Assembly (NCBI GenBank): GCA_041687475.1
Contig: JAWLBW010000002.1
Location: 1 to 51,077 of the forward strand
DNA from: a bacterium
Lineage (GTDB): Bacteria > J088 > JAWLBW01
Length of the DNA stretch: 51,077 nucleotides
Direction: 5' to 3'
In this document: positions 3,339-47,197 of the stretch, one piece after another
How the letters are laid out: the number at the start of each line of letters is the position of its first letter
Position numbering within the stretch: position 1 is the first letter of the stretch
Notes under the pieces: generated by a model
What the model was told of the DNA's origin: nothing
Databases searched by the model: none
What the model saw: the letters and a program-made list of their open reading frames with translations, nothing else
Position numbers and translations under genes: made by a program

Positions 3339-3646
3339 TCCCGTCGAGGCGGAGGTGGGGCGATGGGGAGAAGGGGAGACCTGAGGGCGAAGCGACCGCA
3401 TCAACTCGGGCGGCCTTTCGGAAGGCTCCCCGCACAGCGTCGACGCCGTGAGAAGAGGCAGGCTTCGCCTTCTGTGCCACCTGAGCCTGCATTCCGGTTC
3501 CCCTATTCCGAAATCGAAAGTACAATGGCCGGATAGCCGATGCAGCGTCTGCAACCCGCATTGCCGTCGGGGCCATTGCCGCAAGAGAAGCGTGCGTGCG
3601 CCGGCGGTCGGTTTTCATCGTTTTCCACCGTAAGAGCGTCTCTTTC

Positions 3647-4612
3647 ATGCTGATACCGTTTGTTGCCGTCGTTATCGGTCTCGCTTTGCTCGTATGGAGC
3701 GCAGACCGCTTCGTCGAAGGTTCTGCCGCAACCGCCCGCCACTTCGGCATGCCGCCCCTGCTCATCGGCATGGTTGTCGTGGGCTTCGGTACGTCGGCGC
3801 CGGAAATGGTAGTTTCGGCACTGGCATCGGCACAAGGTAACGCGGGCATCGCCCTCGGCAATGCCTATGGTTCGAATATCACCAACATCGCACTCATTCT
3901 CGGAGTCACCGCCCTTATCAGCCCCATCGCTGTTCATTCTCAGGTGCTGCGCAAGGAACTTCCCATTCTGACGGTGGTGACCGCGCTTGCGGCCTGGCAA
4001 TTGTGGAACGGCGAATTGACACGTATGGACGCAACCGTGCTGCTGGCGGTCTTCGCCGGCCTCATGGCGTGGACGGTCTGGGAAGGACTCCAGAAAACAT
4101 CGGACTCGCTCGCAAGCGAGATGGAAGAAGAGCTCGCCGCACGTCCCATGCCACTGGGCAGGGCGGTTTTCTGGCTCGTTCTCGGCCTTGTCCTGCTCAT
4201 CGTAAGCTCGCGCATTCTCGTCTGGGGTGCCGTAGCCATCGCCCGGGAATTCGGGGTAGGCGATCTATTGATCGGTCTCACCATCGTAGCCGTCGGCACC
4301 TCGTTGCCTGAATTCGCGTCATCGGTCATTGCTGCCAGGAAAGGCGAACACGACATCGCGCTCGGCAACATCCTGGGGTCGAACCTCTTCAACACACTGG
4401 CCGTTGTCGGAATCGCCGGATTGATCAGCCCGATGGAGGTCGGGCTTGAAATTCTCAGCCGCGACATACTGGTGATGGCCCTGCTCACGATTTCTCTGTT
4501 TCTGTTCGGATTCGGATTTCGCGGACCCGGGCGCATCAACCGGGCCGAGGGTTCCCTGCTGCTGGTCGTCTACGTCGGCTACACCGCCTACCTGGTGGCA
4601 ACGGCTTTCTGA
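3647..4612 (+). CDS. CaCA-family calcium/sodium antiporter (YrbG-like), paralog 1
   Basis: Both alpha-repeat signatures are present: GFGTSAPEMVVS and GTSLPEFASSVIAARKGEHDIALGNILGSNLFN. About 10 TM segments. The start was chosen at MLIPFVAVV (internal ATG of the track ORF 3596..4612) by alignment with paralog 2. Confidence 0.85.
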   Translation: MLIPFVAVVIGLALLVWSADRFVEGSAATARHFGMPPLLIGMVVVGFGTSAPEMVVSALASAQGNAGIALGNAYGSNITNIALILGVTALISPIAVHSQVLRKELPILTVVTALAAWQLWNGELTRMDATVLLAVFAGLMAWTVWEGLQKTSDSLASEMEEELAARPMPLGRAVFWLVLGLVLLIVSSRILVWGAVAIAREFGVGDLLIGLTIVAVGTSLPEFASSVIAARKGEHDIALGNILGSNLFNTLAVVGIAGLISPMEVGLEILSRDILVMALLTISLFLFGFGFRGPGRINRAEGSLLLVVYVGYTAYLVATAF

Positions 4613-5409: not shown

Positions 5410-6375
5410 ATGTTGATGCCCCTTCTTGCCCTCGTTCTCGGGCTGGCCCTGCTGGTCTGGAGCGCCGATCGCTTCGTCGAAGGCGCGGCCGCCACCGCAC
5501 GCCATTTCGGCATGCCGCCCCTGCTCATCGGCATGGTCATCGTGGGGTTCGGAACCTCGGCCCCGGAAATGGTCGTCTCGGCCCTGGCCGCCACGCAGGG
5601 CAATCCGGGCATAGCCCTGGGAAACGCCTACGGCTCGAACATTACCAACATCGCCCTCATTCTCGGCGTAACAGCGCTCATCAGCCCTATCGCCGTGCAC
5701 TCGCAGGTACTGCGTAAGGAACTCCCCATTCTCACCCTGCTCACGGCACTCGCCGCCTGGCAGATTTACGACGGCAATGTCACCCGGATCGATGCCCTGG
5801 TGCTTCTCGTGGTGTTTGCCGCGCTCATGGGGTGGACCATCTGGCAGGGCATGAAAAAGAAGGCCGACGCCCTCGGCGCCGAGATGGAAGAAGAGCTCGC
5901 AGTACATGCGATGCCCCTTCCCCGCGCAATTTTCTGGCTTGCCGTGGGGCTTGTGCTTCTCATCGCAAGCTCACGCCTTCTTGTCTGGGGCGCCGTCGAA
6001 ATCGCCCACGCCTTCGGCGTCAGCGACCTGCTCATCGGCTTGACGATTGTGGCCATCGGTACGTCGCTGCCGGAGCTGGCGTCGTCGGTCATTGCCGCCC
6101 GCAAGGGCGAACATGATATCGCGTTGGGCAACATTCTCGGCTCGAATCTTTTCAACACCCTGGCCGTCGTCGGCATCGCGGGCTCGATTCACCCGATGAG
6201 CGTCGGACCCGAGGTCTTCTCTCGCGACGTTCTGGTCATGGCCGGGTTGACGTTGTCGCTCTTCATATTCGGTTACGGCTTCCGGGGACCCGGGCGCATC
6301 AACCGGATCGAAGGCACCCTGCTGCTTACAGCCTACGTCGGCTACACGGTCTTCCTGGTGGTGACGGCATTCTGA
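5410..6375 (+). CDS. CaCA-family calcium/sodium antiporter (YrbG-like), paralog 2
   Basis: 321 aa, by-eye about 80% identical to the 3647..4612 product over the full length, with the same alpha-repeat motifs. Confidence 0.85.
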   Translation: MLMPLLALVLGLALLVWSADRFVEGAAATARHFGMPPLLIGMVIVGFGTSAPEMVVSALAATQGNPGIALGNAYGSNITNIALILGVTALISPIAVHSQVLRKELPILTLLTALAAWQIYDGNVTRIDALVLLVVFAALMGWTIWQGMKKKADALGAEMEEELAVHAMPLPRAIFWLAVGLVLLIASSRLLVWGAVEIAHAFGVSDLLIGLTIVAIGTSLPELASSVIAARKGEHDIALGNILGSNLFNTLAVVGIAGSIHPMSVGPEVFSRDVLVMAGLTLSLFIFGYGFRGPGRINRIEGTLLLTAYVGYTVFLVVTAF

Positions 6376-35600: not shown

Positions 35601-37664
35601 GCCGGGGTCGGAGGGCGACGTCAGGTCGAGATAGGTGCTCGCCGAGCCGAAGGTCGATGTGTTACCGGCCGTATCGCGCACGCGTACCCTGACGGTTTTC
35701 GTGCCGTCCGTCGGCGGAAGCGTCACTTCGGGCGTGCCGTCGAACGGCATCCACGCGCCGAGTATGCCTTCGACCTCAATCTGCATCTGCGCTTCGCCCG
35801 AGACGACTACCATTGTCTGCAGCGGCTCGGCGACCCATGCGGGGCTGCCGTTGAAGGCTACCACCGGCTGATTCGGCGCAACGGAGTCGTAAACGACCGA
35901 TGTCGATGCGCCGGCCGAGACGTTTCCGGCCTCGTCGCGCAGACGCAGATAGATGGTGTGCTCGCCCTGTTCGGTCGGCAACATGAACATGGGGGTTGCC
36001 CAGAACTGTTGCCACGGCTCGCCCTGGAAATCGGGGCTCGTCGACAGCTGCATCTGCACGGCGCCGCTGCTCTCGATAGCCAGCGTTACCGTTTGCGTCG
36101 ACACGGCCGCCGGAGCGCCGGAAACCACAAAGGTAAAGATGGCCGGCGGCGTCTGGTCGAACGTTACGTCGACCGAAGCAGTCGCCACATTGCCGGCCTG
36201 ATCGCGAAAGCGCCCGTGAATGGTCTTGAGCCCGTCGCCTCCCTGTAAGGTAAACGCAGGCGTCGCCGTGTACGGCTCCCACGCAACGCCGCCAAACAGG
36301 GCGTCGGCCGAAAGCTGCATTTCGGTTGCCCCGCCCACGTCAATCTGCAGGTTGACGGTCGGCGCCGAAACGGCTGCCGGAGCCCCCGCAACCGCAAAGC
36401 CGAAGACCTCGGGCGCCTGGCGGTCAAGCAATACGGTGGTCGAGGTCTCGGCAATATTGCCGGCGGCATCGCGAAAACGTGCGTAAATACCGTATTGACC
36501 GTCGGAACCCGGCAGTTCGAAGAGCGGGCCCGGCTCGTAAGCCTGCCATGCCGCCCCCTGGAAACCCGGGTCGCCGGCAAGCTGCATGTCGACGGCGCCG
36601 GATACTTCCAACGCGAGCTGCACGGTCGGGATCGAAACGGCAAACGGCGCTCCGGCAACCCCGAAGGAAACAATTTCGGGCACCACCCTGTCGAGCGTGA
36701 CCGAAATCGAGGCAGCAGCGACATTGCCTGCCGCGTCGCGGAACCGAGCGTAAATGGTTTTGACGCCGTCGCCGCCCGGAAGCGTTACTTCGGCGGTCGT
36801 TGCCACCGGCACCCACGTGGCCCCGGCGAAGTCGGGAGCCGCCGACAGCATCATTTCTCCGGCGCCAGTAACACCAATCTCAAGCGTGACCGTGGTCTGA
36901 CTGACCGCGCTCGGCGAGCCGGCCAACCCGAATGTCTGCACGACGGGGGCCACCGTATCGAGGGTAACCGCGAAGGCTACCGGCGCACCGTACGATTGGT
37001 CGTCGTTGAATGCGGCCAGGGAAAGGCTGTTCCCACCTTCCTTCAGGGTCGTACGGAAGGTGAAGGTCTTGTCGCCGTTACGCGACACCACCTGCTGCCC
37101 GTTCAGCGAGACACCGGTGTACATCTGCTTGCGCCCCGAAAGCGCAAGCTCGGCCCGGTTGGTGACAGCGGCGGGAAAGCGATCGACGACAAGCAGCTTC
37201 GGGTTAACGGGGCCGAGAAAGAATTCGCCGGCATCGGTAAGCTCGTCGGCCCGCACCACAACGCCCCGCTTGCGATCGCGCAGTACCAGCTCATTGCCCC
37301 GCAAGGCCTCGATGACCACCTCGTAGGTTCCCGCGGCCATACCCAGAAGCTCTGCCTGCCTGGCAGCCGCGTCGAACGACTCGGTAACCACCGTCTTGCC
37401 GTTCTGGAGCGCCGAGACACGAATCGTCGTCAGGGTCACCGCCGTATCATAGGCCGCCGCGCGCCAGCCATCGCCGCTCGCGGCACGAGAGATACCGTCG
37501 GCCAGCGCGTAATCGGCGGCCAGCGCGTAATCGGCGGCCAGCGCGTAATCGTCGGGAAGATGCGCCTCGAACACAACCGTACCCGGCCCTTCCGGCGTAC
37601 AGCCCCCAAGCGCGGCGGCAGTAACGAGGGCGTTAACGAAAAAACGAAGGCGTTTCGCAATCAT
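23670..37664 (-). CDS. giant (about 4,664 aa) multi-domain surface lipoprotein / adhesin-like protein
   Basis: A single uninterrupted 14-kb ORF (the track gives 4696 aa from 37760). ATG 37664 gives MIAKRLRFFVNALVTAAALGGC, a signal peptide plus lipobox L-G-G-C. The translation contains at least 13 Ig-like repeats (GDGxKTVYxRxRDxAGN), 8 FN3, 6 NHL, 7 FG-GAP, 9 IPT/TIG and 14 Kelch repeats. A terminator follows. Confidence 0.9.
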   Translation of the reverse strand: MIAKRLRFFVNALVTAAALGGCTPEGPGTVVFEAHLPDDYALAADYALAADYALADGISRAASGDGWRAAAYDTAVTLTTIRVSALQNGKTVVTESFDAAARQAELLGMAAGTYEVVIEALRGNELVLRDRKRGVVVRADELTDAGEFFLGPVNPKLLVVDRFPAAVTNRAELALSGRKQMYTGVSLNGQQVVSRNGDKTFTFRTTLKEGGNSLSLAAFNDDQSYGAPVAFAVTLDTVAPVVQTFGLAGSPSAVSQTTVTLEIGVTGAGEMMLSAAPDFAGATWVPVATTAEVTLPGGDGVKTIYARFRDAAGNVAAASISVTLDRVVPEIVSFGVAGAPFAVSIPTVQLALEVSGAVDMQLAGDPGFQGAAWQAYEPGPLFELPGSDGQYGIYARFRDAAGNIAETSTTVLLDRQAPEVFGFAVAGAPAAVSAPTVNLQIDVGGATEMQLSADALFGGVAWEPYTATPAFTLQGGDGLKTIHGRFRDQAGNVATASVDVTFDQTPPAIFTFVVSGAPAAVSTQTVTLAIESSGAVQMQLSTSPDFQGEPWQQFWATPMFMLPTEQGEHTIYLRLRDEAGNVSAGASTSVVYDSVAPNQPVVAFNGSPAWVAEPLQTMVVVSGEAQMQIEVEGILGAWMPFDGTPEVTLPPTDGTKTVRVRVRDTAGNTSTFGSASTYLDLTSPSDPGVPVFSANPVSESVDVSWGAATDGGSGLNNYELRWTTDGANWYFINYVAGESYTWTSAGEGTYQVRVAARDKVGNASGWMVSEALVVDQTAPVVNGAPVVAANPVSSAVGLSWPAATDENGIDAYRLERSVNEGVTWTQLGVTTATTVVDMPGSGYFRYRYVALDAAGNSTASGYSEKVTVDTGLPPIPAAPVPSASVSATGVTLAWTAVVDGMTGTKDYQVQRSSDWVNWTLLATTTDLGFTDIPGADGEYVYRIRARDNALNVSDWSAGSSAVRIDATAPPTPSAPVFSGNPATAAVTVTWSAVTDATNVSYVLEDSADGGSTFTMIAFQPATSFVYAPETDGRYVLRVAAKDEAGNYGPWSTLSDELVFDTTPPEVAGIPVFSANPVSATVTISWAPASDDTSGIQNYVLDVSTDMGATWSQVISTASTSYEYAPVEGTLQYRVHAVDGAGISGPSSPDATLVVDRTAPSSVVTTPMPNDILAGLPLVEGTWAETGAAGLDSVEVALSDGLLYWDGAGFTSPSPVWLPAATSVNFSWTPPALTDGAYQVESRAIDSAGNREVPAAPTAFTIDTLAPACSTCLVIDSPVYPYSATTAVTLLLDANDEHEIEMRIDGDIVDAFKGTWIPFAATPQVNLTGSDGVKTVSVEFRDPAGNTSLSHADSITLDRTSPVLGNVFLANNDAYVNTEVVTLDITATGDATTMVIGGDVDGGLYTTAFTLSTSVTLTAGDGPKVVSVELHDNAGNSSGTLSDNVELDTAAPVDESVEIAGNPVAVSDPTLPLYTYASDAWEMQFADVADFSIATSWETFSSTAMFTLSGDKGGSFAAQVSSPQSVAYDPAGYLYIADTGNHVIRRIDSAANIETIAGDGTPGYSGDGGLATGARLNAPHGLMLDGQGNLYIADSGNHAIRRIDAGGYVSTVAGGNGAGENGDAGLAVDAQLNFPTQVTVDSGGELYIADRDNHRIRKVDGSGQISTAVGTGLPGFAGDGDVPRNAQLSSPSGVWVDPDDNLYIADTGNHRVRKVESAGNISTMAGTGSVGYSAAETIPTSASLDSPTSVVWNEGEVLISDTGNHVLRVIRPDGYLETLLGDGTPGYAGDGGPEQNARLHSLAGLALGEEGGFLADAGNHAIRRVKSGKIDSVAGNGTPGYTGDGVPFVDGDGLRTVYARYRDLAGNLSAAATTTVTLDTTPPSRPYDIRYAESPVSGPVQLSWEPSVDDGVGVSTYRVEASVDAATWFVIGTSAVTSYTASLGEGGYLFRVSASDLLGNRSDTAQLYQGVLVDQTPPSAPGTPLAAANAVSTAVELAWSPATDAAAGIAHYNLGASNDGGTTWYHVDSMTEPVYSYLPADGEYLFVVSAIDRAGNTGAFSSISLPVTIDTAAPPAPEMPVFSANPVSTAVTISWSSVIDSGSGVAEYVLQASSDDGATFATIAVVTQPDYTYLPSDGAYVYRLAAVDAAGNRSSWSPSTGALLVDTVAPGAPVVSIAGEPTYVNTPNVSLSVSAIGATEMQISESADFGGAGWQSYTASPAVTLSAGDGLKTVYVRVRDVVGLISPANAASVTLDVTPPSTTITQPLDGSRQTAVMSVDGMADDGAGSGIVFVESNLSDGVNFFDGASFTSPAPIWFTATGTSSWSWALSALSDGAYFVEARAVDQAGNTGASTFPVQFTIDTLAPQCAVCIAIDVPQYPYTASQDVTLLFEASGETGPVEMLVDGDIVDAYRGTWMPYASMLSATVTAGDGTKTVSVQYRDAAGNTTILQSDTVTLDTSAPLLGAVELAGGASTVNSSLVSLDLTVSGDVATMDVTGDVATPLLDVPFQGTSSINLSPANGEKTVWVTVYDAVGHASSPVSDTVYLSTSGPALTVKAPFRTFVTGATLAWRVDGANTGDDMARGLAALDDLNDDGIADFAVGIPGDDAAGVDAGKVEIRSGADGSVLHTLTGATAGDKFGSSLATVADIDSDGYRDLLIGAPDTDFAASNAGSVYVISGGTRIELTRLDGTAANENYGKTVAAAEDLDQDGKDEFLVGANGSSFGGRVFVVRGSDYGTMFQVSGDNTADELGRSLAGTPDLNGDGTPDFVAGAPYADYGVTDAGSVYAFSGTDASLLYRLDGQVETGYYGMSLTPGMEMLLVGSPAGTEKGALFISNGLDGAVEHVVYSECGPGCGFGAAVAWAGDLEGDGVEAFVVTEEATWYGGSAAGSVHLYSTEEGRYLYRFDGAAGDYLGRTVAVPGDLNGDSVGDLLVGAYSVNGSVLALASTGETRDFARSSLLRFNLTGAPGAVSAEASVNGGAWNELTGDWSVVEIDVGGEGMHTVSFRGVDGFGNPGTAHTETVGVDLTPPTLMITDPVSNVTTTQATELLISGSMQDPITSGVGGVVRGYYWMATYTDLSGEQRGWAEDDGFYNHVDGAREYFVATSQSSFTQAIPNEGEGLYQIDIAALDGAFNASGGVHTEIVVDRTAPTGGITGPTVVSVSQAMLSLQAEDQWWHEWWQLEMMLTGDITDWYAGSWQPFTDSTYVNFTTGNGNKAVTVQFRDPAGNTSPAYTWSVLVDAFALASLSASSATGGTEITLYGSNFGFPVSDSAVFFDGLMANISLWDETAITATVPEEVPAGQVQVWVETGGDVSNSLPLSVQPSLLSLGASTLSGGDLLFVSGSNFAFPVEASIGGVTQPVETWSATTAEIRVADHTPPGTQPVQLWAYGYPTNTLSIDIAPRIDYIGTIAARAGDAVEIYGANLGGSAGDEVYVGGLPAYIVSWSPTNITFEIPAGVAAGNTMIEVFAGGVYSNSTSFDILPTLTSISSSSVVAGDTLTLWGESFGETSVGNSVLINWVNATVLSWTGTTIDISVPANVGAGPQAIEVMVSSMYSEAQWVDVYPVIDSLSFTSGSGGNTVTAYGSNFGTTPSSLLVGGAGATVGGWDQVTFDFQVPNDAEPGVQPLSVNVNGFPSAPVSFTVIPYLNAISPGYGTGGDTMTLSGTNFGSTQGQVLVDDIAATVLSWNAYEIQAEIPQAVTAGSRQMRVVAGGETSAGQWISVSPTITALNPVSGPVGAVVDIIGHNFGNFAVGNTIEFGGVVTEPVSWAPSLIQVRVPPELGPGTWSVQVGIDANYSNGEPFDVFVPMPQITTITPAAARSYATVTIDGSGFGPPAPQNDVYFGGVTANVYTWTDTQIVAEVPVNANAGNLKLRVSKGPDVSNAVPFVHERPWIEMRYPANGAPGTTMTISGRYFGTTTGAVHFDGMPATVNGWTDDTVQVTVPAGTTGRQSVVVLDASSVGSNRVPWVQTGNDVWVPLGDAPLAVSEQTAVWTGTEMIVWGGRHIGPRDTGARYNPATDSWMAVARAGAPEARYAHTAVWAGDRMVVWGGKNGFGAHLDSGGMYDPISDSWQATQPAGVPVARVGHSALYTGREMIVFGGYDGTSFRNDGARFNPRTNQWGPMALAASPRAEHTAVWTGQGMLVHGGRDGAGETNSIEQYNPAGNAWTSFSGATETRRLHTAVWTGSSMIVFGGRSGAADLATGEIFYPQGGTWGTMPTGSPARSGHTAVWAGEQMLVFGGRSSGSPIDAGTAYYPAVESWVNMNNVGSPGPRYAHTTVWTGGDMLVFGGAEVEGEALNTGGRYNPQSDTWTPIDNGGTPVGRTAHTAVFTGSEMIVWGGKNVRTGQHRNTGARYNPATESWTPVQTTGAPTARARHTAVWAPEAGRMIVWGGVDAVGGALNSGGRYDPSLDSWAPTSTLTGVPAARTNHTAVWTGAEMIVWGGTDMTNRLGSGGRYNASGDTWTQVATGGPTPREGHTAVWSGQEMLIWGGVDGTTHYSNGASFNPGLGQWTAIPSTSLSPRTGHTAVWSGSEMIVFGGVSGPTTYFNDGARYMPGTGWTLLGLTGAPVGRARHTAVFSGNELIVWGGVDPGGYAPGGGRYLPGTNTWIGVSGADEPQTRVGHTAVWAPGKGMLLFGGEAGQAQNAGVLNDGGRYLP
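23673..25740 (-). other. giant protein: 14 Kelch-type repeats (enough for two 7-bladed propellers), C-terminal
   Basis: 14 occurrences of the roughly 50-aa unit H-T-A-V-W-(T/S/A)-G-x-x-M-(I/L)-V-(W/F)-G-G ... R-Y-(N/D)-P-x-x-(D/N)-x-W. The protein ends ...NDGGRYLP with no recognisable sorting tag. Confidence 0.8.
25741..27929 (-). other. giant protein: 9 tandem IPT/TIG domains
   Basis: Nine roughly 80-aa units each contain GG(T/D)x(I/L)T(L/I)xG(S/T)NFG and ...V/I..W....I...VP......G...V.V. Boundaries are approximate. Confidence 0.7.
28815..29960 (-). other. giant protein: FG-GAP (integrin-alpha-like) 7-bladed propeller
   Basis: Six DxDxDG-type loops (DLNDDGIADFAVG, DIDSDGYRDLLIG, DLDQDGKDEFLVG, DLNGDGTPDFVAG, DLEGDGVEAFVV, DLNGDSVGDLLVG) plus one degenerate blade, with intervening (F/Y)G motifs. 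Boundaries are approximate. Confidence 0.75.
31165..32035 (-). other. giant protein: FN3 block 2 (3 domains)
   Basis: Units like PVFSANPVSTAVTISWSSVIDSGSGVAEYVLQASSDDGATFATIA...YVYRLAAVDAAGNRSSWS show the FN3-like W...Y...Y.V.A.D..GN pattern. Boundaries are approximate. Confidence 0.65.
32130..33125 (-). other. giant protein: 6 NHL repeats (6-bladed propeller) inserted in an Ig-like repeat
   Basis: Six units have (L/V)YIAD(T/S)GNH(x)(I/V)R(R/K)(I/V) cores: GNHVIRRID, GNHAIRRID, DNHRIRKVD, GNHRVRKVE, GNHVLRVIR, GNHAIRRVK. Each is followed by G(D/N)GTPGY(S/A/T)GDG. Confidence 0.8.
34185..35620 (-). other. giant protein: FN3 block 1 (5 domains)
   Basis: Five roughly 97-aa units, for example PVFSANPVSESVDVSWGAATDGGSGLNNYELRWTTDGANW...YQVRVAARDKVGNASGW. 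Boundaries are approximate. Confidence 0.65.
35625..36968 (-). other. giant protein: 5 tandem Ig-like roughly 90-aa repeats
   Basis: Five consecutive units follow the pattern (T/L)LD..(A/P)P......(A/S)G.P.AVS..TV.L.I...GA..MQLS....F.G..W.....T..F.L.GGDG.KTIY.RFRD.AGN. Confidence 0.75.
37501..37554 (-). repeat. 18-bp in-frame tandem repeat x3 (encodes DYALAA-DYALAA-DYALAD) near the 5' end of the giant gene
   Basis: The plus strand reads gccagcgcgtaatcggcg twice perfectly (37501-37536), then gccagcgcgtaatcgtcg with one mismatch (37537-37554). It lies about 17 codons after the lipobox Cys. Confidence 0.9.
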
Positions 37665-38011
37665 GGCTTCCCTGTAACGAGCGGTGACCGGCAGACCAGT
37701 CGCCGGGTGAACCTTTGGGTGGAACGTCCGAATATTAACACAGCGCGGCAACACCAACAAACGATCCAGATCACACTCCGGAAAATTCTTTCAGACGAAA
37801 TATGGACAAGGGAGCGGGAACAGGCTGAAACGCTTCCCGGCTTCCGGGTAAAAACCTTCGAATACCTCCGGAATCCCCCATGCGTGCGCGGGATCACAGC
37901 AGGCCCGGGCCAAACGGGTTACAACGTGAACAGCGGTCTGTCGGAGAAAGGCTGGCCGGTTAAGCGTCCTTCTGCTAGGCTGGGGCATTCATCTTCCGTC
38001 ACGACTTACCG

Positions 38012-39397
38012 ATGAATTCGCGTACAAGACACCTGACTTCGCTGTTGTTCGGCACCCTGCTTCTGCTTACGCCGCCGTCTGCCTCGGCGCAGGACGACTT
38101 TTCGGGAAACCTGGAAATCGGCACCACCCTTTTCCGCCTCGGCAAAGACGAAAAAGCCGTCATTTACCTAGAGCGAGCCGCCGAGGCGCGTCCCGATGAT
38201 TCTTCGGCGCTGATTCCGCTGGGTATCTCGCTGTCTCGACTCGGTCGCCATGAAGAGGCGGTAACGGTGCTCGAGCGCGCCGAGCTCAAAGGCACCCTCG
38301 GCGCCGATGGGGCCTGGTATCTGGGCGAGTCGTGGAAAGCGCTGGGGAATCGAGAAGCCGCCCGCCATGCCTACCAGCTGGCCGCCGAACTGGGGGGCCC
38401 ACTGAGCACGCGTGCCCTGCTTGAAAGCGGGCGCATGGCCCTGACGCTCGGCGACCTGCAGGGCGCCGAACGCGATTTCGAACGGGTGCTGCAACTGCAG
38501 GCAGCCGGCGATCTGGCCGCCGAAGCCCGCGCGGGGCTGTCCGAGGTGTCACGTCGACGGAGCACCCGCCTGGCCGTAAACGTCGATGCGGGCATTCGCT
38601 ACGACAGCAACGTACTTCTTTCGGGCGCCCCGACGAGCGACGACCGCGGCTTTCGCGCCGTCGTGAACGGTCAGGGACGATACCGCTTCATCGAAACACA
38701 ATCGCTGCGCTCGGAAGGGGCCGTGGTTGTAAATCAGGGCCGCTATTTCGACCCCGACCACCGGGCCCTCGATTTGGGCGTTCACCAAGCGCAGGCCGAT
38801 CTGACCTGGCGGCCGGGCAAGCTACCCCTTCGCCTCGGCGGCCTGGTGCGTGCCGAATACTGGACGCTCGACTTCCATTTCTACAAACGCGCCATCGGCG
38901 TGGGGCCGCGCCTGCTTGTCGCCATGGGCGAGAACTTCGCCACCGCGGCTTCGTGGGAATGGCGGCTCGACGATTTCCGCAGCGACGAGCGCGACGGTAT
39001 CAACCGGCGTGCCCAGCTCAACCAATTCGCCTTCTGGGGAAAAACCGGCTACGCCGGCATCGGGGCCAGTTACGAAACCAACCGTGCCGCCGACGACTTC
39101 TGGATTTACGATCTGCTGAGCGCCCGCATTTTCGGCGGCGGCGACGTGGGGGCGGGCATTCTCGTCGACGGCAGTTTCGAGTACCTGCTTACGCCCTATC
39201 TGGCCGAGTCGGTCGACCGCACCGACCGGGCCCTCAGCGCCGCGCTGGGCGTGAGTCGCTGGTGGGGCGACTGGGGTGTGCGCCTCTCGACCGCGTGGAT
39301 TCGGAACGAAAACGTGCGCGCCCCCGAAATCGGCGTTCTGGCCGGAAACTACACCAAGTGGCTGGGCGGTCTCGAAGCCCGTTGGCGCATGCCCTGA
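38012..39397 (+). CDS. outer-membrane protein: N-terminal TPR domain + C-terminal beta-barrel (Slam/DUF560-like architecture)
   Basis: The signal peptide is MNSRTRHLTSLLFGTLLLLTPPSASA-QDD. About 170 aa are TPR-like helices (GKDEKAVIYLERAAEARPDD, GRHEEAVTVLERA, GNREAARHAYQLAAELG, GDLQGAERDFERVLQLQ). About 290 aa then carry roughly 14 alternating-hydrophobic strand-like segments, starting RLAVNVDAGIRYDSNV and ending GGLEARWRMP. Confidence 0.7.
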   Translation: MNSRTRHLTSLLFGTLLLLTPPSASAQDDFSGNLEIGTTLFRLGKDEKAVIYLERAAEARPDDSSALIPLGISLSRLGRHEEAVTVLERAELKGTLGADGAWYLGESWKALGNREAARHAYQLAAELGGPLSTRALLESGRMALTLGDLQGAERDFERVLQLQAAGDLAAEARAGLSEVSRRRSTRLAVNVDAGIRYDSNVLLSGAPTSDDRGFRAVVNGQGRYRFIETQSLRSEGAVVVNQGRYFDPDHRALDLGVHQAQADLTWRPGKLPLRLGGLVRAEYWTLDFHFYKRAIGVGPRLLVAMGENFATAASWEWRLDDFRSDERDGINRRAQLNQFAFWGKTGYAGIGASYETNRAADDFWIYDLLSARIFGGGDVGAGILVDGSFEYLLTPYLAESVDRTDRALSAALGVSRWWGDWGVRLSTAWIRNENVRAPEIGVLAGNYTKWLGGLEARWRMP

Positions 39398-39473: not shown

Positions 39474-40481
39474 ATGAAACGTTTGTTGGCGCTGGGCGCC
39501 CTGATGCTTTCCCTGGTATGCACCGAAGCCTGGGCGGCCACCGCTCACGTGGGAACGGTGGTTTCGTCGACCGGTACGGTCGTTCTGCAGCGTACCGGCA
39601 AGCGCTACAAGCTTCCCGAAGGCACCAAGGTCTACAACGGCGATTCGGTGGTAACCGGTAAGGGCGCCTTTGCCAAGATTCTGCTTGCCGACGACAGCCT
39701 GCTCACCATCAACGAGTCCAGCGCCTTTCGCCTGGAGGGGTTCGAGACCAGCGATCAGCAGCGCAGCGGACGTTTTCGCCTTTACTTCGGCAAGATGCGG
39801 GCGGTGGTTTCCAAGTTTCTCTCGGGCAACACCGATTACAAATTTCAGACCCCCACGGCCGTGGCCGGCGTGCGCGGCACCCATTTCGTGCTCGAGTTCG
39901 ACAAGAATGCGCAGCAAACGACCTTGTCGGTCGTCGAGGGACAGGTTGCGTTCAATGCCGTCGACGAGCGCATCGGCACCCCGGTTCTGGTCGGCGCGTC
40001 GCAGCGCTCGGAACAACGCAGTCGAAGCGCCCCCAGCGAAGCCCGTGAAATGACCGACCAGGAGCGTCAGTCGGTAAACGAAGAAATTGCTTCGACCCAG
40101 ACGCCGCCCGAAGGCACCGGCGAGTCGCAGGGCGAAGGCGGTGAACGTCAGGAAGAGTCGGCGTCTACCGGAAGTGACGGCGACGCAGGTGGTGGCGATG
40201 CAGGCGAGGGCGACAGCGAGAACGACGGCGAAGATACCGGCGACGAGGCATCGGGTGAAGGCGGCAATGATGAGGGCGCGAACGAAGACGGAGCCTCGCA
40301 TAACGATGCAGGAGATGAGTCTGCCCAGGAGACCCCCGAACAGCCGGCCGACGGCGGCGTCATCGAACGCACCGAAACCGTTCAACAGGAAGTGCCCCGC
40401 GAGGTCGAGCGCAACCTGCCCACCGACAGTCCGGTCGCAGACCCCAGCGTAAACCCCACAGGCATTCGCGTGCGCTGGTAA
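39474..40481 (+). CDS. FecR-domain periplasmic protein with long acidic low-complexity tail
   Basis: The signal peptide is MKRLLALGALMLSLVCTEAWA-A. The FecR-like beta-sandwich pattern is VVLQRTGKRYKLPEGTKVYNGDSVVTGKGAFAKILLADDSLLTINESSAFRLE...TPTAVAGVRGTHFVLE. An approximately 90-aa Gly/Asp/Glu-rich region follows. RBS gagggag. Confidence 0.75.
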   Translation: MKRLLALGALMLSLVCTEAWAATAHVGTVVSSTGTVVLQRTGKRYKLPEGTKVYNGDSVVTGKGAFAKILLADDSLLTINESSAFRLEGFETSDQQRSGRFRLYFGKMRAVVSKFLSGNTDYKFQTPTAVAGVRGTHFVLEFDKNAQQTTLSVVEGQVAFNAVDERIGTPVLVGASQRSEQRSRSAPSEAREMTDQERQSVNEEIASTQTPPEGTGESQGEGGERQEESASTGSDGDAGGGDAGEGDSENDGEDTGDEASGEGGNDEGANEDGASHNDAGDESAQETPEQPADGGVIERTETVQQEVPREVERNLPTDSPVADPSVNPTGIRVRW

Positions 40482-40509
40482 GCTGCGCAGCACAATCTTC
40501 CCTTGTCTC

Positions 40510-40541
40510 GGCCGGGAGGGCAATGCTCTCCCGGCCTTTTT
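40510..40541 (+). terminator. intrinsic terminator after the FecR-domain gene
   Basis: ggccgggag-(9 nt)-ctcccggcc is a perfect 9-bp GC-rich stem followed by ttttt, 29 nt after the stop. Confidence 0.75.
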
Positions 40542-40652
40542 CATGCCTTGCTTCCCGGATTCGGACTGCCTTCTGGCGACCGAGGGGTAGACAACTGTTG
40601 TGTGACATTGATAGACTACCGCAGCGCTCGCTGGAAACAAGGGGGAACAACC

Positions 40653-41888
40653 ATGCGCCAACTCACCGGCGGCCTCGCCGCTCTGCTCGTATTCGCCGCC
40701 GCCTGCAGCCCGGTCGAAGTCGAAAACACCGGGCCGCTCGACTATACCGTGCAGCTCGAGAAACCGGCCTTCGGCTACCAGATAGCGACGGCCCCGCACG
40801 TCGTGCATCCGGGCGAAGAGTACTATTCGTGCGACATCGTGCGCATCGATCCGCAGAACGGCGAGAACCTGGCGTGGATCGGCGGTCTCGAGAGTCGCAC
40901 TTCGGTCTCGAGCCATCACATGAACGTCAACCTGGGCATCTTCTCCGTGGCCGACGCCCTGCTCGGCGAGGGTCAGGCCGAGCTCATGCTCGGCAAGGAA
41001 CTCGGGCAGTACGACTGTGCAGAGCTGGGCGACCTCATGGAGAAGCAACAGGCACAGACCCTGTACCCGAGCCAGCGCACCGAACAGGGCGGCACCCTGC
41101 CCGAAGGGGTCGGCCTGCCCCTGCCGCTGCCCCTCGTGCTGGTCATGGAGCACCACTACATCAACACCTTCGATGCGCCGGTCAACATCAACGCCGTGCT
41201 GAACCTGCATCGCATGCAGGACCACGAGGTCAAGCACGTGGTCACCGGTTTCTCGGGCGGAATCAACGATGTGCTGCTTCCGCCCGAGTCACGTAAGATC
41301 GAGACGGGCACCTGCAAGCTGAAACAGGACATCAACGTTTTCGCGATTTCCAGCCACTCGCACGAACGCGGGGCCTGCTTCACGATGAATCTATATGACG
41401 AACTCAGCCGTGAAGTCGATCCCACGCCCTTCTTCGTAAACAAAGACTGGGAGTCGCCCCCCATTCTCTTTTTCGAGCAGAGCGAGTACTTCGCGAACCA
41501 GCCTCTGGCCATGAAGGCGGGCGAAGGCATACACTGGGCCTGCCATTACTACAACGACGAAAATCGCGAAGTAACCACCGGCGCATCGTCCGATGACGAA
41601 ATGTGCATCTTCGTCGCCCTCGGCTACCCGTCGAAGTATACGCCCGATGACGTGCGCGATCTCATGCAGAATCCGAACCTCGAGGCGGCACAGGCGCTGA
41701 TGAACCAGATTCCCTGTGAAAGCGTCGCCGACGCCGAAAGCCCGTGGGAAGAAGCCGATATCGCCTACGCCATAGACGACGACGCCCCGCTGCTTGACGA
41801 CACCGCCCCGGAAGCCGCGCCGTCATTCCGTTCCCTGCATGCGAGTCTCGAGCACGACATGTGCCGGGAGTACGACCAGACCGAGTAG
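40653..41888 (+). CDS. PHM/DBH-like copper type II monooxygenase-fold protein, secreted/lipoprotein (paralog 1)
   Basis: The signal peptide is MRQLTGGLAALLVFAAAC. Ordered motifs are SSHHMNV (HHM), MEHHYIN (HY), SSHSHERG (HxH) and SSDDEMCIF (EMC). These match the order of CuH (H,H...H) and CuM (HxH...M) ligands of peptidylglycine alpha-hydroxylating monooxygenase and dopamine beta-monooxygenase. The internal ATG of track ORF 40503..41888 was chosen. Confidence 0.7.
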   Translation: MRQLTGGLAALLVFAAACSPVEVENTGPLDYTVQLEKPAFGYQIATAPHVVHPGEEYYSCDIVRIDPQNGENLAWIGGLESRTSVSSHHMNVNLGIFSVADALLGEGQAELMLGKELGQYDCAELGDLMEKQQAQTLYPSQRTEQGGTLPEGVGLPLPLPLVLVMEHHYINTFDAPVNINAVLNLHRMQDHEVKHVVTGFSGGINDVLLPPESRKIETGTCKLKQDINVFAISSHSHERGACFTMNLYDELSREVDPTPFFVNKDWESPPILFFEQSEYFANQPLAMKAGEGIHWACHYYNDENREVTTGASSDDEMCIFVALGYPSKYTPDDVRDLMQNPNLEAAQALMNQIPCESVADAESPWEEADIAYAIDDDAPLLDDTAPEAAPSFRSLHASLEHDMCREYDQTE

Positions 41889-42431: not shown

Positions 42432-43697
42432 CTAAAGAGATACGAGAAAGTATACGAGGCACATTTCATCGGCAGTGCCTTCGCCCCAGGTCGTCGCCCG
42501 GGTCCGGTCCGAGGTGTCGAAGCCGCAGGTCAGCCGAATACTCGACGACGGGCTGACACGCAAGGGTTCCTCGTAGAAGTAGAACTGCTGCCAGTTGAAG
42601 TCCCAGCGGGGAACGTTGACCAGGCAGGTTTCGTCGCCGAATTCGAGATTGTCGACGCGCAATGTCTTGCCCAGCGTGTGCATGTGGGGAAAAGCGGCCC
42701 AGACCCGCAGGGGAAACGGCAGCCCCAGGGTCGATAGGTCGTAGGTATAGCTCTGTTCGACATACGACTCGCCGGGGGGCAGGTAAATGCCGAGGTGAGC
42801 CACCGGGGCCAGCACCGACTGGTATCGCACCGACGCGTCGACCTGCAGTTCGAGCCGGGAACGATCGGGGGTCACGCCGCTCAAGGTGTTGTAGTGCATC
42901 TGCATGACCAGCTTGCGGCCGGCTTTCAGGGCAATGCCCACGCCCTCGGGAAATCGGGTTACCGGCGTTCCGGGGGCCCAGCCGGCCAGGGTTTGCGAGC
43001 CGTCGACGCCCGCGCCCCCGAAGCAGGTGTAACCGGGGCCGGGTTCTGCCTCGTCAAACGCCAGCGCCTGGGCTTCGGCCTCGTCGGTGTCGAGGGAGTA
43101 GAGAATCATGTGATGGGCCATGGCCGCATTGTCGGGAATCATGCGAAAACCGGTCAGGAACCCGTCGGAGTCGAGTCGGGGGTCGACGATGAAACAGCGG
43201 TAATCGTCGGCCCGGCTGTCATCGGGGGTATAGGCCTCGGCCGGGGCGACGGTCGCGTCGACCCTGTCGAGCGTGGGCGGTTCATCGCTGTCGGCGGGCG
43301 CCGGTGCGTCGGCCGGATTACCCCTGGGCGCCCCGGCATCGGCCCATGCGCCGATGAGCGCGATGTCGTCGTCGCTGAGCCAGCGGGCGTGTTGCCAGGT
43401 GTTGCAGGCACCCGAGTTGTCGACGCCCCATGGGGGCATGCTGCGATCGGCGGTGCGGGCCTTGATGGCGCCGGCGTAGGCCTTTGCCTCGTCATAACCG
43501 GTCAACGTAAAGGGGGCAATGCCGCCTTCGGTGTGACAACCGCTGCACTGTGCGCTGATGATGGGGCCGACGTCGCGGTGCCAGGTCGGCGAAGCCGCGT
43601 TCTTCTTCTTGTCGTCGCCGCACCCCGCCGCCGTCAGCAAGACAGCTAACAGCAGGGGAACGAACACAGGCGCTCCGTCATTCAGCTCACGTAACAT
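42432..43697 (-). CDS. heme-c (CxxCH) domain fused to PHM/DBH-like copper monooxygenase fold, lipoprotein (paralog 2)
   Basis: Signal and lipobox: LLLAVLLTAAGC-GDDKKK. Heme c site: CSGCH with downstream ...DRSMPPW. Then AHHMILY (HHM), MQMHYN (HY), FPHMHTLGK (HxH) and TADEMCLVYF (EMC). RBS aggaggg. Confidence 0.7.
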   Translation of the reverse strand: MLRELNDGAPVFVPLLLAVLLTAAGCGDDKKKNAASPTWHRDVGPIISAQCSGCHTEGGIAPFTLTGYDEAKAYAGAIKARTADRSMPPWGVDNSGACNTWQHARWLSDDDIALIGAWADAGAPRGNPADAPAPADSDEPPTLDRVDATVAPAEAYTPDDSRADDYRCFIVDPRLDSDGFLTGFRMIPDNAAMAHHMILYSLDTDEAEAQALAFDEAEPGPGYTCFGGAGVDGSQTLAGWAPGTPVTRFPEGVGIALKAGRKLVMQMHYNTLSGVTPDRSRLELQVDASVRYQSVLAPVAHLGIYLPPGESYVEQSYTYDLSTLGLPFPLRVWAAFPHMHTLGKTLRVDNLEFGDETCLVNVPRWDFNWQQFYFYEEPLRVSPSSSIRLTCGFDTSDRTRATTWGEGTADEMCLVYFLVSL

Positions 43698-45056: not shown

Positions 45057-45884
45057 TCAGGACTGGCTTCTGATCGTCGGACCGTACTTCGACCAGAACT
45101 CGCTCACGACCACGCCCAGCGAGCCCAGCACCACGCCCATCAGAAGGGCGAGCGCCGCGACCAGTGTCAAAAGCGGACGAACTGGGCCCGGCGAGCTCAC
45201 GGCCGCCGTTTCGACGTGGGTCGGGTTCGCTTGCATACGGGCAAGGTACAAGCGGTTCTCGAAAAGCTGCTCAAGCGCCAACTGGCGGGTCTGCTGTTCG
45301 GTCGAACGTTCGATGCCCCGGGCCGCCGAAACCACCGGATCGCGGTTGGTCGAAGCCCCCGGCGACGAGTTGCGCAGGGCGTCGGCCAGAACTTCAAGTT
45401 CGGCAAGATAAGTCGCGGTTGCTTCCTGCACGACGGAGGCTTCGGCCTGATGCTGCGCGACCAATTCGTCGGCAACCTGTTGGGCAAGCGCAACGGCGTC
45501 GGCTTTGTTGTACGCCTCGGCTTCGATGCGAATGAAGCGGTCGGTTCCGCCTTCGGAAATATCGGCTACCCAGGCAACCTCGCGGCGCTGCAGATTCGGC
45601 TCGTCGACGCGATAATTGATACGCAGGCGGGCAACCACGTCCTTGGGCGGTTCGACGTGCTCGAGTCGGCCGTTTCCGATCACGTACCCCACCTTCACGA
45701 CCGCAAAGCTGCGATAAATTCGCTCGGCCAGGAAAAAGTAAGCCCCGGCAGCCAGCAATACGATGACGAAAAGCACGGAAAAAACGAACCGGCGACGCCA
45801 GAAAATGGCGACCAGCTCGGCCATGTCCATGCCTCTGGATGCGTCGACCACTGCGGTTGTTGGTTGCTGTGCTGTGAGAGGCAT
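45057..45884 (-). CDS. Wzz-type polysaccharide co-polymerase (chain-length determinant)
   Basis: The topology is PCP-1: N-terminal TM (FVFSVLFVIVLLAAGAYFFL) just after AELVAIFWRRR, a long helical periplasmic region, and a C-terminal Pro/Gly-containing TM (PGPVRPLLTLVAALALLMGVVLGSLGVVV). The start is uncertain (45956, 45884 or 45830). Confidence 0.65.
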   Translation of the reverse strand: MPLTAQQPTTAVVDASRGMDMAELVAIFWRRRFVFSVLFVIVLLAAGAYFFLAERIYRSFAVVKVGYVIGNGRLEHVEPPKDVVARLRINYRVDEPNLQRREVAWVADISEGGTDRFIRIEAEAYNKADAVALAQQVADELVAQHQAEASVVQEATATYLAELEVLADALRNSSPGASTNRDPVVSAARGIERSTEQQTRQLALEQLFENRLYLARMQANPTHVETAAVSSPGPVRPLLTLVAALALLMGVVLGSLGVVVSEFWSKYGPTIRSQS

Positions 45885-45997
45885 GCCCTGTTCCCGTTCC
45901 CCGGCCTGTGAAGTGTTACCGATAAATGACCCAACGTTTCTTGGGCAATCAAGCATTATAGCACGGACCGCCGAACACCCAAACTGCCGATACTCGC

Positions 45998-47071
45998 CTA
46001 CGTAGGAGCCCCTGACTCGACCGGTGCGACGGGCACGACCGGCACTCCGTTCTCTTCGAGATACCGGTAAGCCAGTGTAATACGCTCCCGGTCGATGTCA
46101 GACAACAGACCGGGGGGTATTTCAAAGGCCGTAACCCCGATGCCGGGAAAAATGCGGGGAAGCGTTACGAGCGCGGTTGAACAGAAACCCGCGATGGCGG
46201 CGGGCGTCTCGCGTCGCAGTAGAAATTCGATTTCGATGGCGTTTTCGAGAACGAGTGTCTCCATTCCGGTTGCGTAAGAAAGCCGGTCGAGCGCTTCAGG
46301 CGTTTCGGCTCGATGCGCCAGGTAAATGAAGCGCTTTCCCTGATAATACGCCTGCGCGAAGCGAAGCGCATCGAACAGAGCCTGCGGCGTGGTGAAGCCG
46401 CGATCGAGATAGGGTTGGCCCACGAAGTAGACACTCTCGTCGGCACGGCGACCGCTCTCGCGCAAAAGCGCGCGCGTAAAGGTAAAATCGTTCGGCACCA
46501 CGCGCTGCCCGGGGTGCGGCGTCAGCGAGAAGCAGGTAAACAAGGTCGGCACCGGGTCGGCGAAGAAACCTAGCCTGCGCGCGAGGCTGGTACGAAGGTA
46601 TGCCGCCATTACGGCCGGATTGGCGCCCACCGGAGGCTCGGGCCGAAGAAAAAGCGGGTGCCGATGAATGTTTACCGACGCCATGCCGTCGTCAAGCAGG
46701 ATCAGCTCGTCGTACGACATGCCGGCGGCAAGGAAACGCCGGGTAATGCTGTTGTAGTCCGAGAGAAAGACCCGCGCGTACCGTCGCGCGCCCATTTTCC
46801 GGCGGAAAGCGGCCAGGCGCAGGGCCTGCAGCGGCAGACTCGCATTTCGATGAAGGAAGGGAACGGTAACGATCTCGTCCCACGGAGCGGCGAGGGCGAG
46901 CACGCGCTCGATCTGCTCGTAGTTGCGTGTACCCGTCGGCGCGTGCAGCGCGAGCACATGCCGTTCGGCCGGAAACCGCTCGCGTGCTTCAAGAGCGCTG
47001 AGCAACTGCAGGGGCGATCCGGCAAGATAGAGGTTGGTTGTGAAGGCGTCTTCTACGCCGGTTGCGGCCAT
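45998..47071 (-). CDS. hypothetical glycosyltransferase-like protein; candidate nonulosonic-acid (pseudaminic acid) transferase
   Basis: About 357-380 aa. It contains LILLDDGMAS (D-D-G) and LTPHPG (H-P), reminiscent of the two short motifs shared by bacterial sialyltransferase families. It is divergent from the pse operon and adjacent to wzz. The start is uncertain (TTG 47140 or ATG 47071). Confidence 0.4.
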   Translation of the reverse strand: MAATGVEDAFTTNLYLAGSPLQLLSALEARERFPAERHVLALHAPTGTRNYEQIERVLALAAPWDEIVTVPFLHRNASLPLQALRLAAFRRKMGARRYARVFLSDYNSITRRFLAAGMSYDELILLDDGMASVNIHRHPLFLRPEPPVGANPAVMAAYLRTSLARRLGFFADPVPTLFTCFSLTPHPGQRVVPNDFTFTRALLRESGRRADESVYFVGQPYLDRGFTTPQALFDALRFAQAYYQGKRFIYLAHRAETPEALDRLSYATGMETLVLENAIEIEFLLRRETPAAIAGFCSTALVTLPRIFPGIGVTAFEIPPGLLSDIDRERITLAYRYLEENGVPVVPVAPVESGAPT

Positions 47072-47197
47072 ACTCCATCTTACCGGCTTCGCTGTTCTCG
47101 CCTCAAGCACGCCCTCGTAATCTCTCCTTTGTACACGCAAGCGCCGAGGTGCTAAACTGTTGGCTTAACATTTCCGGAGCTCCCTGCGCCGGCGTGA

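Follow-up and report, generated by a model that had tools for sequence, protein, structure and literature searches.

We analysed a stretch of 51,077 nucleotides of bacterial DNA (GTDB lineage Bacteria; J088; JAWLBW01; positions 1 to 51,077 of the forward strand of contig JAWLBW010000002.1, GenBank assembly GCA_041687475.1), hereafter referred to as the window, and focused on a gene in it that encodes a secreted outer-membrane protein (OMP) composed of tetratricopeptide repeats (TPR) and a beta-barrel. On one side this gene is followed by a same-strand gene for a secreted, stand-alone FecR-domain protein (the FecR partner), and on the other side it is divergent from the gene of a giant lipoprotein. 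The original prediction, made from the letters of the window, was that the OMP is a candidate relative of the Slam proteins (DUF560/SlipAM; type 11 secretion system, T11SS) and may serve as the dedicated translocon of the giant lipoprotein. The comparison of related loci leads to a different picture of the gene neighbourhood: the OMP and FecR-domain genes form a conserved two-gene module, a gene pairing that extends across phyla, and the constant genomic partner of the OMP is the FecR-domain protein, which that prediction had overlooked, whereas the giant lipoprotein is not a conserved partner.

The N-terminus of the OMP, MNSRTRHLTSLLFGTLLLLTPPSASA|QDD (…LLLLTPPSASA|QDD), reads as a Sec signal peptide, and both the open reading frame (ORF) and the secreted nature of its 461-amino-acid (aa) product agree with the original description. 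Six further metagenome-derived proteins align with the OMP over the full length at 41-53% identity and with synteny kept, so the gene is real and not a chance ORF. The TPR families of Pfam match aa 35-175 (TPR_2 E 2.3e-13, TPR_8 E 1.1e-11, TPR_16 E 8.9e-11). The AlphaFold2 model, computed from an alignment of 25 sequences, has a mean predicted local distance difference test score (pLDDT) of 92.5 and a predicted template modelling score (pTM) of 0.74; an earlier run on a 3-sequence alignment had resolved the TPR part alone (pLDDT >90), with the barrel at pLDDT 30-60. The model contains nine helices at aa 25-184, corresponding to four TPR pairs and a linker helix, and exactly 14 strands between aa 187 and 460. 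The approximately four helical pairs and roughly 14 strands that had been counted from the sequence are thus reproduced, including both ends of the barrel: the segment RLAVNVDAGIRYDSNV (aa 186-201) coincides with the first strand of the model (E187-198) and WLGGLEARWRMP (aa 450-461) with the last (E447-460).

The FecR partner consists of a signal peptide and a FecR domain (PF04773) at aa 57-158 (E 4.7e-16), followed by a variable region. Its gene begins 76 bp after the OMP stop. A pattern scan found a terminator-like hairpin 3' of the FecR gene and none between the OMP stop at 39397 and the FecR start at 39474, so that the two genes look like a bicistronic unit and, judging by this operon-like layout, look like they are co-transcribed. 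The same order recurs wherever it can be read. A locus was counted as readable if the sequence downstream of the OMP gene is present (the remaining contigs end too early to show the next gene), and in 11 of 11 distinct readable loci, namely the window, L001, L002, L003, L004, L007, L008/L009, L010, the P0020 contig, L011 and L012, the OMP gene is followed by a same-strand FecR-domain gene at a gap of -4 to 227 bp, with zero counter-examples. The pairing is also recovered from the opposite direction, in an independent genome search that started from the FecR partner alone: two of the three loci that it returned (L011 and L012, from metagenome-assembled genomes (MAGs) labelled Thermodesulfobacteriota and Pseudomonadota) have a TPR-barrel gene directly upstream, and these barrel genes match the hidden Markov model (HMM) of the extended family at E 1e-34 and 7e-30. 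We did not find a description of a Slam-like OMP paired with a stand-alone FecR-domain protein in the literature that we searched. The features of the window and the gene order at the related loci are collected in Table 1.

Table 1. Features of the window and genes found downstream of the OMP gene at related loci
Feature	Position	Strand	Evidence or remark
Giant lipoprotein gene, 4664 aa	23670..37664	-	ORF; Pfam Big/fn3, NHL, FG-GAP, IPT/TIG, Kelch-propeller
Divergent intergenic region, giant lipoprotein and OMP genes, 347 bp	37665..38011	.	Sequence; alignment with L003
OMP gene, 461 aa, TPR and predicted 14-stranded beta-barrel	38012..39397	+	ORF list, ATG start; Pfam TPR; AlphaFold2 model; homologues P0002-P0007
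OMP signal peptide	aa 1-26, 38012-38089		
OMP TPR domain	aa 25-184, 38084-38563		
OMP barrel	aa 187-460, 38570-39391		
FecR-domain gene, 335 aa, secreted, stand-alone	39474..40481	+	Pfam FecR; alignments; 11/11 readable loci
Terminator-like hairpin, 12-bp stem, 10 G:C pairs, T-rich tail	40510..40545	+	Pattern scan; 3' of FecR stop
L001, L002 (OMPs P0003, P0002)			Downstream of OMP: FecR-domain gene
L003 (OMP P0004)			Downstream of OMP: FecR-domain gene, cut by contig end
L004 (OMP P0007)			Downstream of OMP: FecR-domain gene
L007 (OMP P0022)			Downstream of OMP: FecR-like ORF, truncated, E 8e-8
L008/L009 (OMP P0009)			Downstream of OMP: FecR-domain gene
L010 (OMP P0013)			Downstream of OMP: FecR-domain gene, 4-bp overlap
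P0020 contig			Downstream of OMP: FecR, then CHASE2-cyclase

At L011 (7127-9718) and L012 (7647-10331) the OMP-FecR pair is followed by a gene for a large PTPS_related membrane protein with C-terminal TPRs, which suggests a three-gene variant of the module. The third locus returned by the search from the FecR partner, L013 in a MAG labelled Rokuibacteriota, was rejected because it represents a different module, consisting of a BBP2_2 porin and a Wza-like exporter.

Relatives of the OMP are rare. A word-indexed search of 5.8 billion clusters yielded two, and a pattern scan of 185,579 species-representative genomes and JGI metagenome contigs yielded none. When 1.84 billion representatives were searched exhaustively with HMMER, a profile limited to the barrel returned 23 proteins at E<=1e-3, that is, five strong matches including the window's own OMP and 18 distant ones, nearly all of them TPR-plus-barrel proteins of 390-530 aa. 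The core clade comprises only seven known sequences, all of them metagenomic. Sequence comparison places the OMP as a very rare, divergent clade of the Slam-like (DUF560/SlipAM) superfamily, outside the boundary of the curated family; the remote homology runs via intermediates that themselves pass the threshold of the Pfam SlipAM family (PF04575, formerly DUF560; gathering score 22 bits). OMPs of the Slam/T11SS type are built from an N-terminal TPR domain and a 14-stranded DUF560 barrel (PMC5449769, PMC8406197). SlipAM is the sole Pfam barrel family matched by the HMM consensus of the core family (seven sequences), and this match is colinear, with residues 85-228 of the consensus aligned to profile positions 84-226. 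Among the distant relatives, three proteins that the core profile retrieved from the 1.84-billion-protein library at E 1e-4 to 7e-4 score above the SlipAM threshold (P0019 28.9 bits, P0020 31.9 bits and P0022 32.9 bits, the last over positions 4-284 of the 288 in the profile), and several others match SlipAM or TPR_Slam (PF24575) below threshold; TPR_Slam is matched weakly and only in these distant relatives of the OMP. The extended-family consensus scores 39.7 bits against SlipAM, and the OMP of L011 passes as well, at 23.0 bits over positions 1-276 of 288. In an HHalign comparison the core barrel aligned with the SlipAM-passing relatives at 99.1% probability (E 1e-18, 265 of 287 columns), where three of the four sequences in the template had been found by the core profile itself. 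In the control comparison a true BBP2_2 porin (L013, 111 bits) obtained 0.2% against the core profile. The core members have no match to BBP2_2 (PF10082, 378 positions), and those of the distant relatives cover only positions ~291-378, the last 60-90 of the profile, which indicates a generic similarity of the C-terminal strands.

Several results weigh against this placement. The OMP itself is below the SlipAM gathering score, with 11.1 bits (E 0.28) for the full length and 12.6 bits for the barrel alone; the homologue P0004 scores 13.3 bits, while the two closest homologues (P0002 and P0003) and P0006 have no SlipAM match at all. The consensus of the core family, at 16.2 bits (E 0.008), is also below the cut-off. 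For a consensus of the distant members only, DUF2860 outscores SlipAM (55 vs 39.8 bits), so the exact placement within the clan of outer-membrane barrels is soft. When the HHalign comparison was limited to the OMP of L011, which is the only SlipAM-positive protein that was retrieved independently, the probability was 29.6% (E 6e-4, 148 colinear columns). Structural comparison gave generic matches. The top Foldseek match of the OMP model in the PDB is BcsC (E 3e-12, root-mean-square deviation (RMSD) 16 A, TM-score 0.40), as TPR-plus-barrel layout is common to both, and the best matches of the barrel alone are the 14-stranded OmpG and CymA (TMt 0.53-0.61); no Slam structure is among the PDB matches listed for the model, and PDB sequence searches with the full OMP, the barrel profile and the relative P0022 found only TPR proteins or noise and no Slam chain. 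The original assignment to Slam/T11SS therefore stands as regards the architecture, the colinear SlipAM match and the link through P0019, P0020 and P0022, and fails as regards a direct match to DUF560, where 11-16 bits were obtained against the 22 of the threshold.

The FecR partner is not an anti-sigma factor. Apart from the signal peptide at its N-terminus it lacks hydrophobic segments, it has zero transmembrane helices, and the ORFs neighbouring the OMP-FecR pair in the window contain no ECF (extracytoplasmic function) sigma factor (sigma-70 r2/r4) or TonB-dependent receptor domains. The best NCBIfam models for it are those of the Leptospira proteins Lsa33 (E 1.5e-15) and LipL45 (E 1.5e-13), at scores far below the cut-off (57 vs 420 bits). 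The FecR domain is followed by a variable, acidic, low-complexity linker rich in D, E and G (aa ~195-300, 40059-40370), which in the window's protein is ~70 aa longer than in the orthologues, its 105 residues including 20 E, 12 D and 22 G and lacking K; its DNA includes an imperfect tandem repeat of 15 bp in 2.4 copies at 40179-40214. The C-terminus (40441-40478) has the pattern LPT[DE]..P..G[IV]RVRW-COOH, which is invariant in all four core-family partners for which the C-terminal sequence is available and reads GIRVRW at its end in the window. The alternation of hydrophobic and Arg residues ending with an aromatic one resembles the terminal strand of the OMPs (39359-39394 in the window; LEARWRMP, DVRYRL, DLRYRF, EARVRY), and by this resemblance the tail could be a candidate element for strand complementation or for docking in the manner of a beta-signal.

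On the other side of the OMP gene, the giant lipoprotein gene probably starts with the ATG at 37664 on the minus strand (MIAKRLRFF…AALGGC lipobox), and with this start the spacer has the 347 bp that were originally given. The two genes are adjacent at two of the six core-family loci, the window and L003. At the other four the gene upstream of the OMP is NadA (L001, L002) or a NUDIX gene (L004 and the P0006 contig), and this includes the loci of the OMPs closest to that of the window, since the OMPs of L001 and L002 are 52-53% identical to it and yet have NadA upstream. In L003, a divergent lipoprotein gene, cut by the contig end, lies upstream of the OMP gene, and the first 249 aa of its product are 38% identical to the N-terminus of the giant lipoprotein (E 4e-46), with the same GC[ST]PExPG lipobox context. 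As the L003 OMP is only 48% identical to that of the window, the adjacency has persisted; its origin is apparently old, and some lineages seem to have lost it while retaining the OMP-FecR pair intact. The N-terminal module of the giant lipoprotein was not found elsewhere by metagenome scan and protein search. A large truncated ORF in L001 was considered as a relative of the giant lipoprotein and rejected, as it encodes an unrelated OmpA-domain protein.

The spacer contains a block at 37730-37779 that is conserved with the intergenic region of L003 (1480-1788) and reads GAATAtTAaCACAGC ... AAyGATCCnGATCACA. Within it lies the near-palindrome GATCCAGATC, of the GATCCnGATC type, which in L003 is replaced by the perfect palindrome GATCCGGATC. 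The block is located ~70-115 nt upstream of the start of the giant gene, that is, on the side of that gene and not on the OMP side, and it may serve the giant gene as promoter or operator. Just past the lipobox of the giant lipoprotein, an 18-bp tandem repeat (37499-37555, 3.2 copies, 97% matches) encodes DYALAA three times; the L003 orthologue lacks it, and it may represent a linker prone to slippage.

The reading that we prefer, and hold with moderate confidence, is that the FecR-domain protein is the client or partner of the OMP, which would act on it as a Slam-like translocon or anchor. OMPs of the T11SS translocate Sec-exported soluble proteins or lipoproteins that are encoded nearby (PMC12282271), and it is by analogy with these OMPs and their cargo that we infer the direction and nature of the interaction between the OMP and the FecR partner, as well as any surface exposure of the latter. 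Both proteins would be exported by Sec; once in the periplasm, the FecR-domain protein would be captured by the TPR domain of the OMP and then translocated to the cell surface, or anchored or tethered there, by the barrel. Recognition would involve the conserved C-terminal tail of the partner (G[IV]RVRW-COOH), taking the place of the 8-stranded barrel of classical T11SS cargo, and the giant lipoprotein would be at most an additional, lineage-specific client. Three observations speak against the FecR-domain protein as a client. Known T11SS cargo is unified by a C-terminal 8-stranded barrel (PMC12282271) and no such barrel, of the TbpBBD or lipoprotein C type, is present in the FecR partner; the distant relatives have FecR partners without the GIRVRW tail in our alignment; and in one relative, the P0020 contig, the FecR gene is followed by a gene for a CHASE2 cyclase, which fits a signalling function better. 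A bolder version of the preferred reading, which we regard as a long shot, is that the pair is a previously unrecognised type-11-like branch with a new class of client, namely FecR-domain proteins that are recognised via a short, beta-signal-like G[IV]RVRW tail and displayed on or tethered to the surface, and that in the window's lineage the FecR partner could also be an adaptor that brings the giant lipoprotein to the surface. If this were true, Slam-type translocons would reach non-proteobacterial phyla and cargo ~10 times larger than any known.

The order of genes in the P0020 contig (OMP, FecR, CHASE2-guanylate/adenylate cyclase; ENA ERZ27297709), whose OMP is SlipAM-positive, also suggests the main rival of the preferred reading, in which nothing is secreted and the two proteins form an envelope-spanning sensing module: the OMP would be a receptor or channel and the periplasmic FecR-domain protein would relay its state to inner-membrane sensors, loosely as in FecA-FecR or in NsrA upstream of the CHASE2 adenylate cyclases of Sinorhizobium. 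FecR proper uses its FecR domain as the periplasmic contact with an outer-membrane protein (summarised in PMC5498481), the outer-membrane protein NsrA of S. meliloti is required upstream of CHASE2 cyclases (PMC7529298), the FecR-domain gene smc02177 of the same species is among the targets of the cAMP-dependent regulator Clr, and the FecR partner has no cargo domain of the T11SS type. Nevertheless, NsrA is an analogy only, and in the window, L001, L002, L004, L008, L010, L011 and L012 the pair has no neighbouring gene for a CHASE2 protein, ECF sigma factor, anti-sigma factor or other sensor. The FecR partner also has no transmembrane segment for inward signalling, the OMP has no features of TonB-dependent transducers, and the sole Pfam barrel family to which it can be linked is a translocon family. 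We consider a sensing function of the module rather unlikely; the CHASE2 cyclase of the P0020 contig hints that some versions of the module feed cyclic-nucleotide signalling. The reading from which this work started, in which the OMP flips the adjacent giant lipoprotein to the surface with the FecR-domain protein perhaps as an accessory, we find quite improbable. The divergent genes have a common spacer, ~half of Slam genes adjoin a lipoprotein gene (PMC5449769), and several clients per Slam are possible. On the other hand, the giant lipoprotein is not a conserved neighbour of the OMP, its N-terminal module is confined to the window and L003 in our scans, the conserved intergenic block lies only on its own side of the spacer, and its C-terminal end consists of Kelch propellers, with no TbpBBD-like or other 8-strand C-terminal barrel found by Pfam. 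Such a cargo barrel is also missing from the other neighbours that were scanned (two Cu-monooxygenase-like proteins, a 236-aa ORF, and the Wzz-like and polysialyltransferase-like proteins). The claim of a dedicated cargo is thus weakened, and the most that the giant lipoprotein may be is an extra client in particular lineages; some weight is left to the idea by L003, where an orthologous lipoprotein gene occupies the corresponding divergent position.

The original prediction also named an alternative of its own, a small TPR-porin of the PgaA/BcsC/AlgK-E type that would export polysaccharide, to which PelB and a BBP2_2/EpsL-type porin may be added. BcsC is indeed the top Foldseek match, and PelBC and AlgE are in the same list; the window carries Wzz-like and polysialyltransferase-like genes 5.6-7.7 kb further downstream, the PTPS_related/TPR membrane protein follows the FecR gene in L011 and L012, and the distant relatives match the last strands of BBP2_2. 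These points are outweighed by the strand count, the missing family matches and the gene context, on which we reject a PgaA/BcsC/AlgE-type porin and judge an export porin in general highly improbable. The model of the OMP has 14 strands, against 16 in the barrels of BcsC, PgaA and PelB and 18 in that of AlgE. The BcsC match, at its large RMSD and low TM-score, is driven by the common TPR-plus-barrel layout; no core member has a Pfam match to the BcsC, PgaA, PelB or alginate-export barrels; the BBP2_2 matches are confined to the profile end and the true BBP2_2 porin has an HHalign probability of just 0.2% against the core profile; and no polysaccharide synthase or Wza gene is conserved beside the module.

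The wider surroundings of the module contain several further features. Directly downstream of the OMP-FecR unit there are two convergent genes with copper type II monooxygenase domains of the PHM/DBH-like type (40503-41888 on the plus strand and 42432-43697 on the minus strand), a family unusual in bacteria, whose products both have lipobox-like N-termini (…VFAAAC and …LTAAGC); these lipoprotein genes are particular to the window, are not conserved at related loci and do not belong to the module. About 6 kb downstream, a capsule or polysaccharide locus is indicated by genes for a Wzz-like chain-length determinant and a polysialyltransferase-like protein (45057-45956 and 45998-47140, both on the minus strand), which are not conserved beside the OMP in other loci. 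Near the beginning of the window, 3596-4612 and 5410-6375 encode similar paralogous membrane proteins that look like sodium/calcium exchangers and have long identical stretches (…LALLVWSADRFVEG.AATARHFGMPPLLIGM…); these close paralogues share a strand and are separated by ~0.8 kb, which suggests that they arose by a recent local duplication. A different envelope gene cluster lies upstream of P0008, the OMP of the nearest outgroup, in L006 (846-4351); it encodes a small OMP beta-barrel, a BON-domain protein, a CsgG-like protein (a faint match) and a Flg_new_2 protein. This contig stops short of where a FecR gene could appear.

For most members of the T11SS OMP family a client is neither known nor predicted (PMC12282271, PMC8406197). 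What is new here is a rare, divergent clade of Slam-like OMPs that is defined by an invariant stand-alone FecR-domain partner, and although we infer its function from analogy, the combination provides a testable pair of OMP and client without the canonical cargo barrel. It also offers a possible role for many orphan secreted FecR-domain proteins, such as those similar to LipL45, extends the occurrence of Slam-like architecture beyond Proteobacteria (to the MAG labelled Thermodesulfobacteriota), and corrects, as weakly supported, the tempting idea that a giant adhesin-like lipoprotein is the cargo.

Among the known systems with which the module can be compared, BcsC, PgaA, PelB and AlgK-AlgE combine periplasmic TPRs with an outer-membrane barrel as the OMP does, but they have 16-18 strands, much longer TPR arrays and operons with polysaccharide synthases, none of which is found at the OMP locus. 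The FecA-FecR-FecI system likewise pairs a FecR domain (PF04773) with a barrel protein of the outer membrane. The FecR of that system is an anti-sigma factor in the inner membrane, and its gene stands with those of an ECF sigma factor and a TonB-dependent transducer, whereas the window's FecR partner has a signal peptide only, no sigma factor gene accompanies it, and the OMP is not TonB-dependent. FecR is listed 201 times among the neighbours of T11SS cluster-1 genes, with matching counts of sigma-70 r2/r4, and the window's partner is distinct from these FecR genes in the same respects. In Leptospira, NCBI names Lsa33 and Lsa19 adhesins (Lsa33 a surface adhesin), so that the LipL45/Lsa33/Lsa19 group consists of FecR-domain proteins that are annotated as envelope or surface proteins; these are lipoproteins, unlike the window's partner, and the similarity is far below the cut-offs. 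They are not known to have a Slam-like partner. The closest comparison is with the Slam/T11SS proteins (Neisseria Slam1/2, Xenorhabdus NilB/HrpB), which resemble the OMP in having a signal peptide, a TPR domain of ~140-160 aa and a 14-stranded barrel of ~280 aa (PMC5449769, PMC8406197), and in being encoded beside a Sec-exported protein. The OMP differs from them in that it fails the SlipAM gathering score, its neighbour is a stand-alone FecR-domain protein that lacks the C-terminal 8-stranded barrel of the TbpBBD or lipoprotein C type, genes for TonB or a TonB-dependent receptor are missing from the vicinity, and a related module occurs in a MAG labelled Thermodesulfobacteriota while the T11SS has been described as proteobacterial. 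In T11SS cluster 3, from marine Rhodobacteraceae, the OMPs co-occur with DUF1194 proteins, a neighbour without an 8-strand barrel (PMC12282271). Although that neighbour is DUF1194/vWA-like rather than FecR and the cluster 3 OMPs are bona fide DUF560 proteins, cluster 3 is a precedent for a DUF560 OMP with a different secreted globular neighbour.

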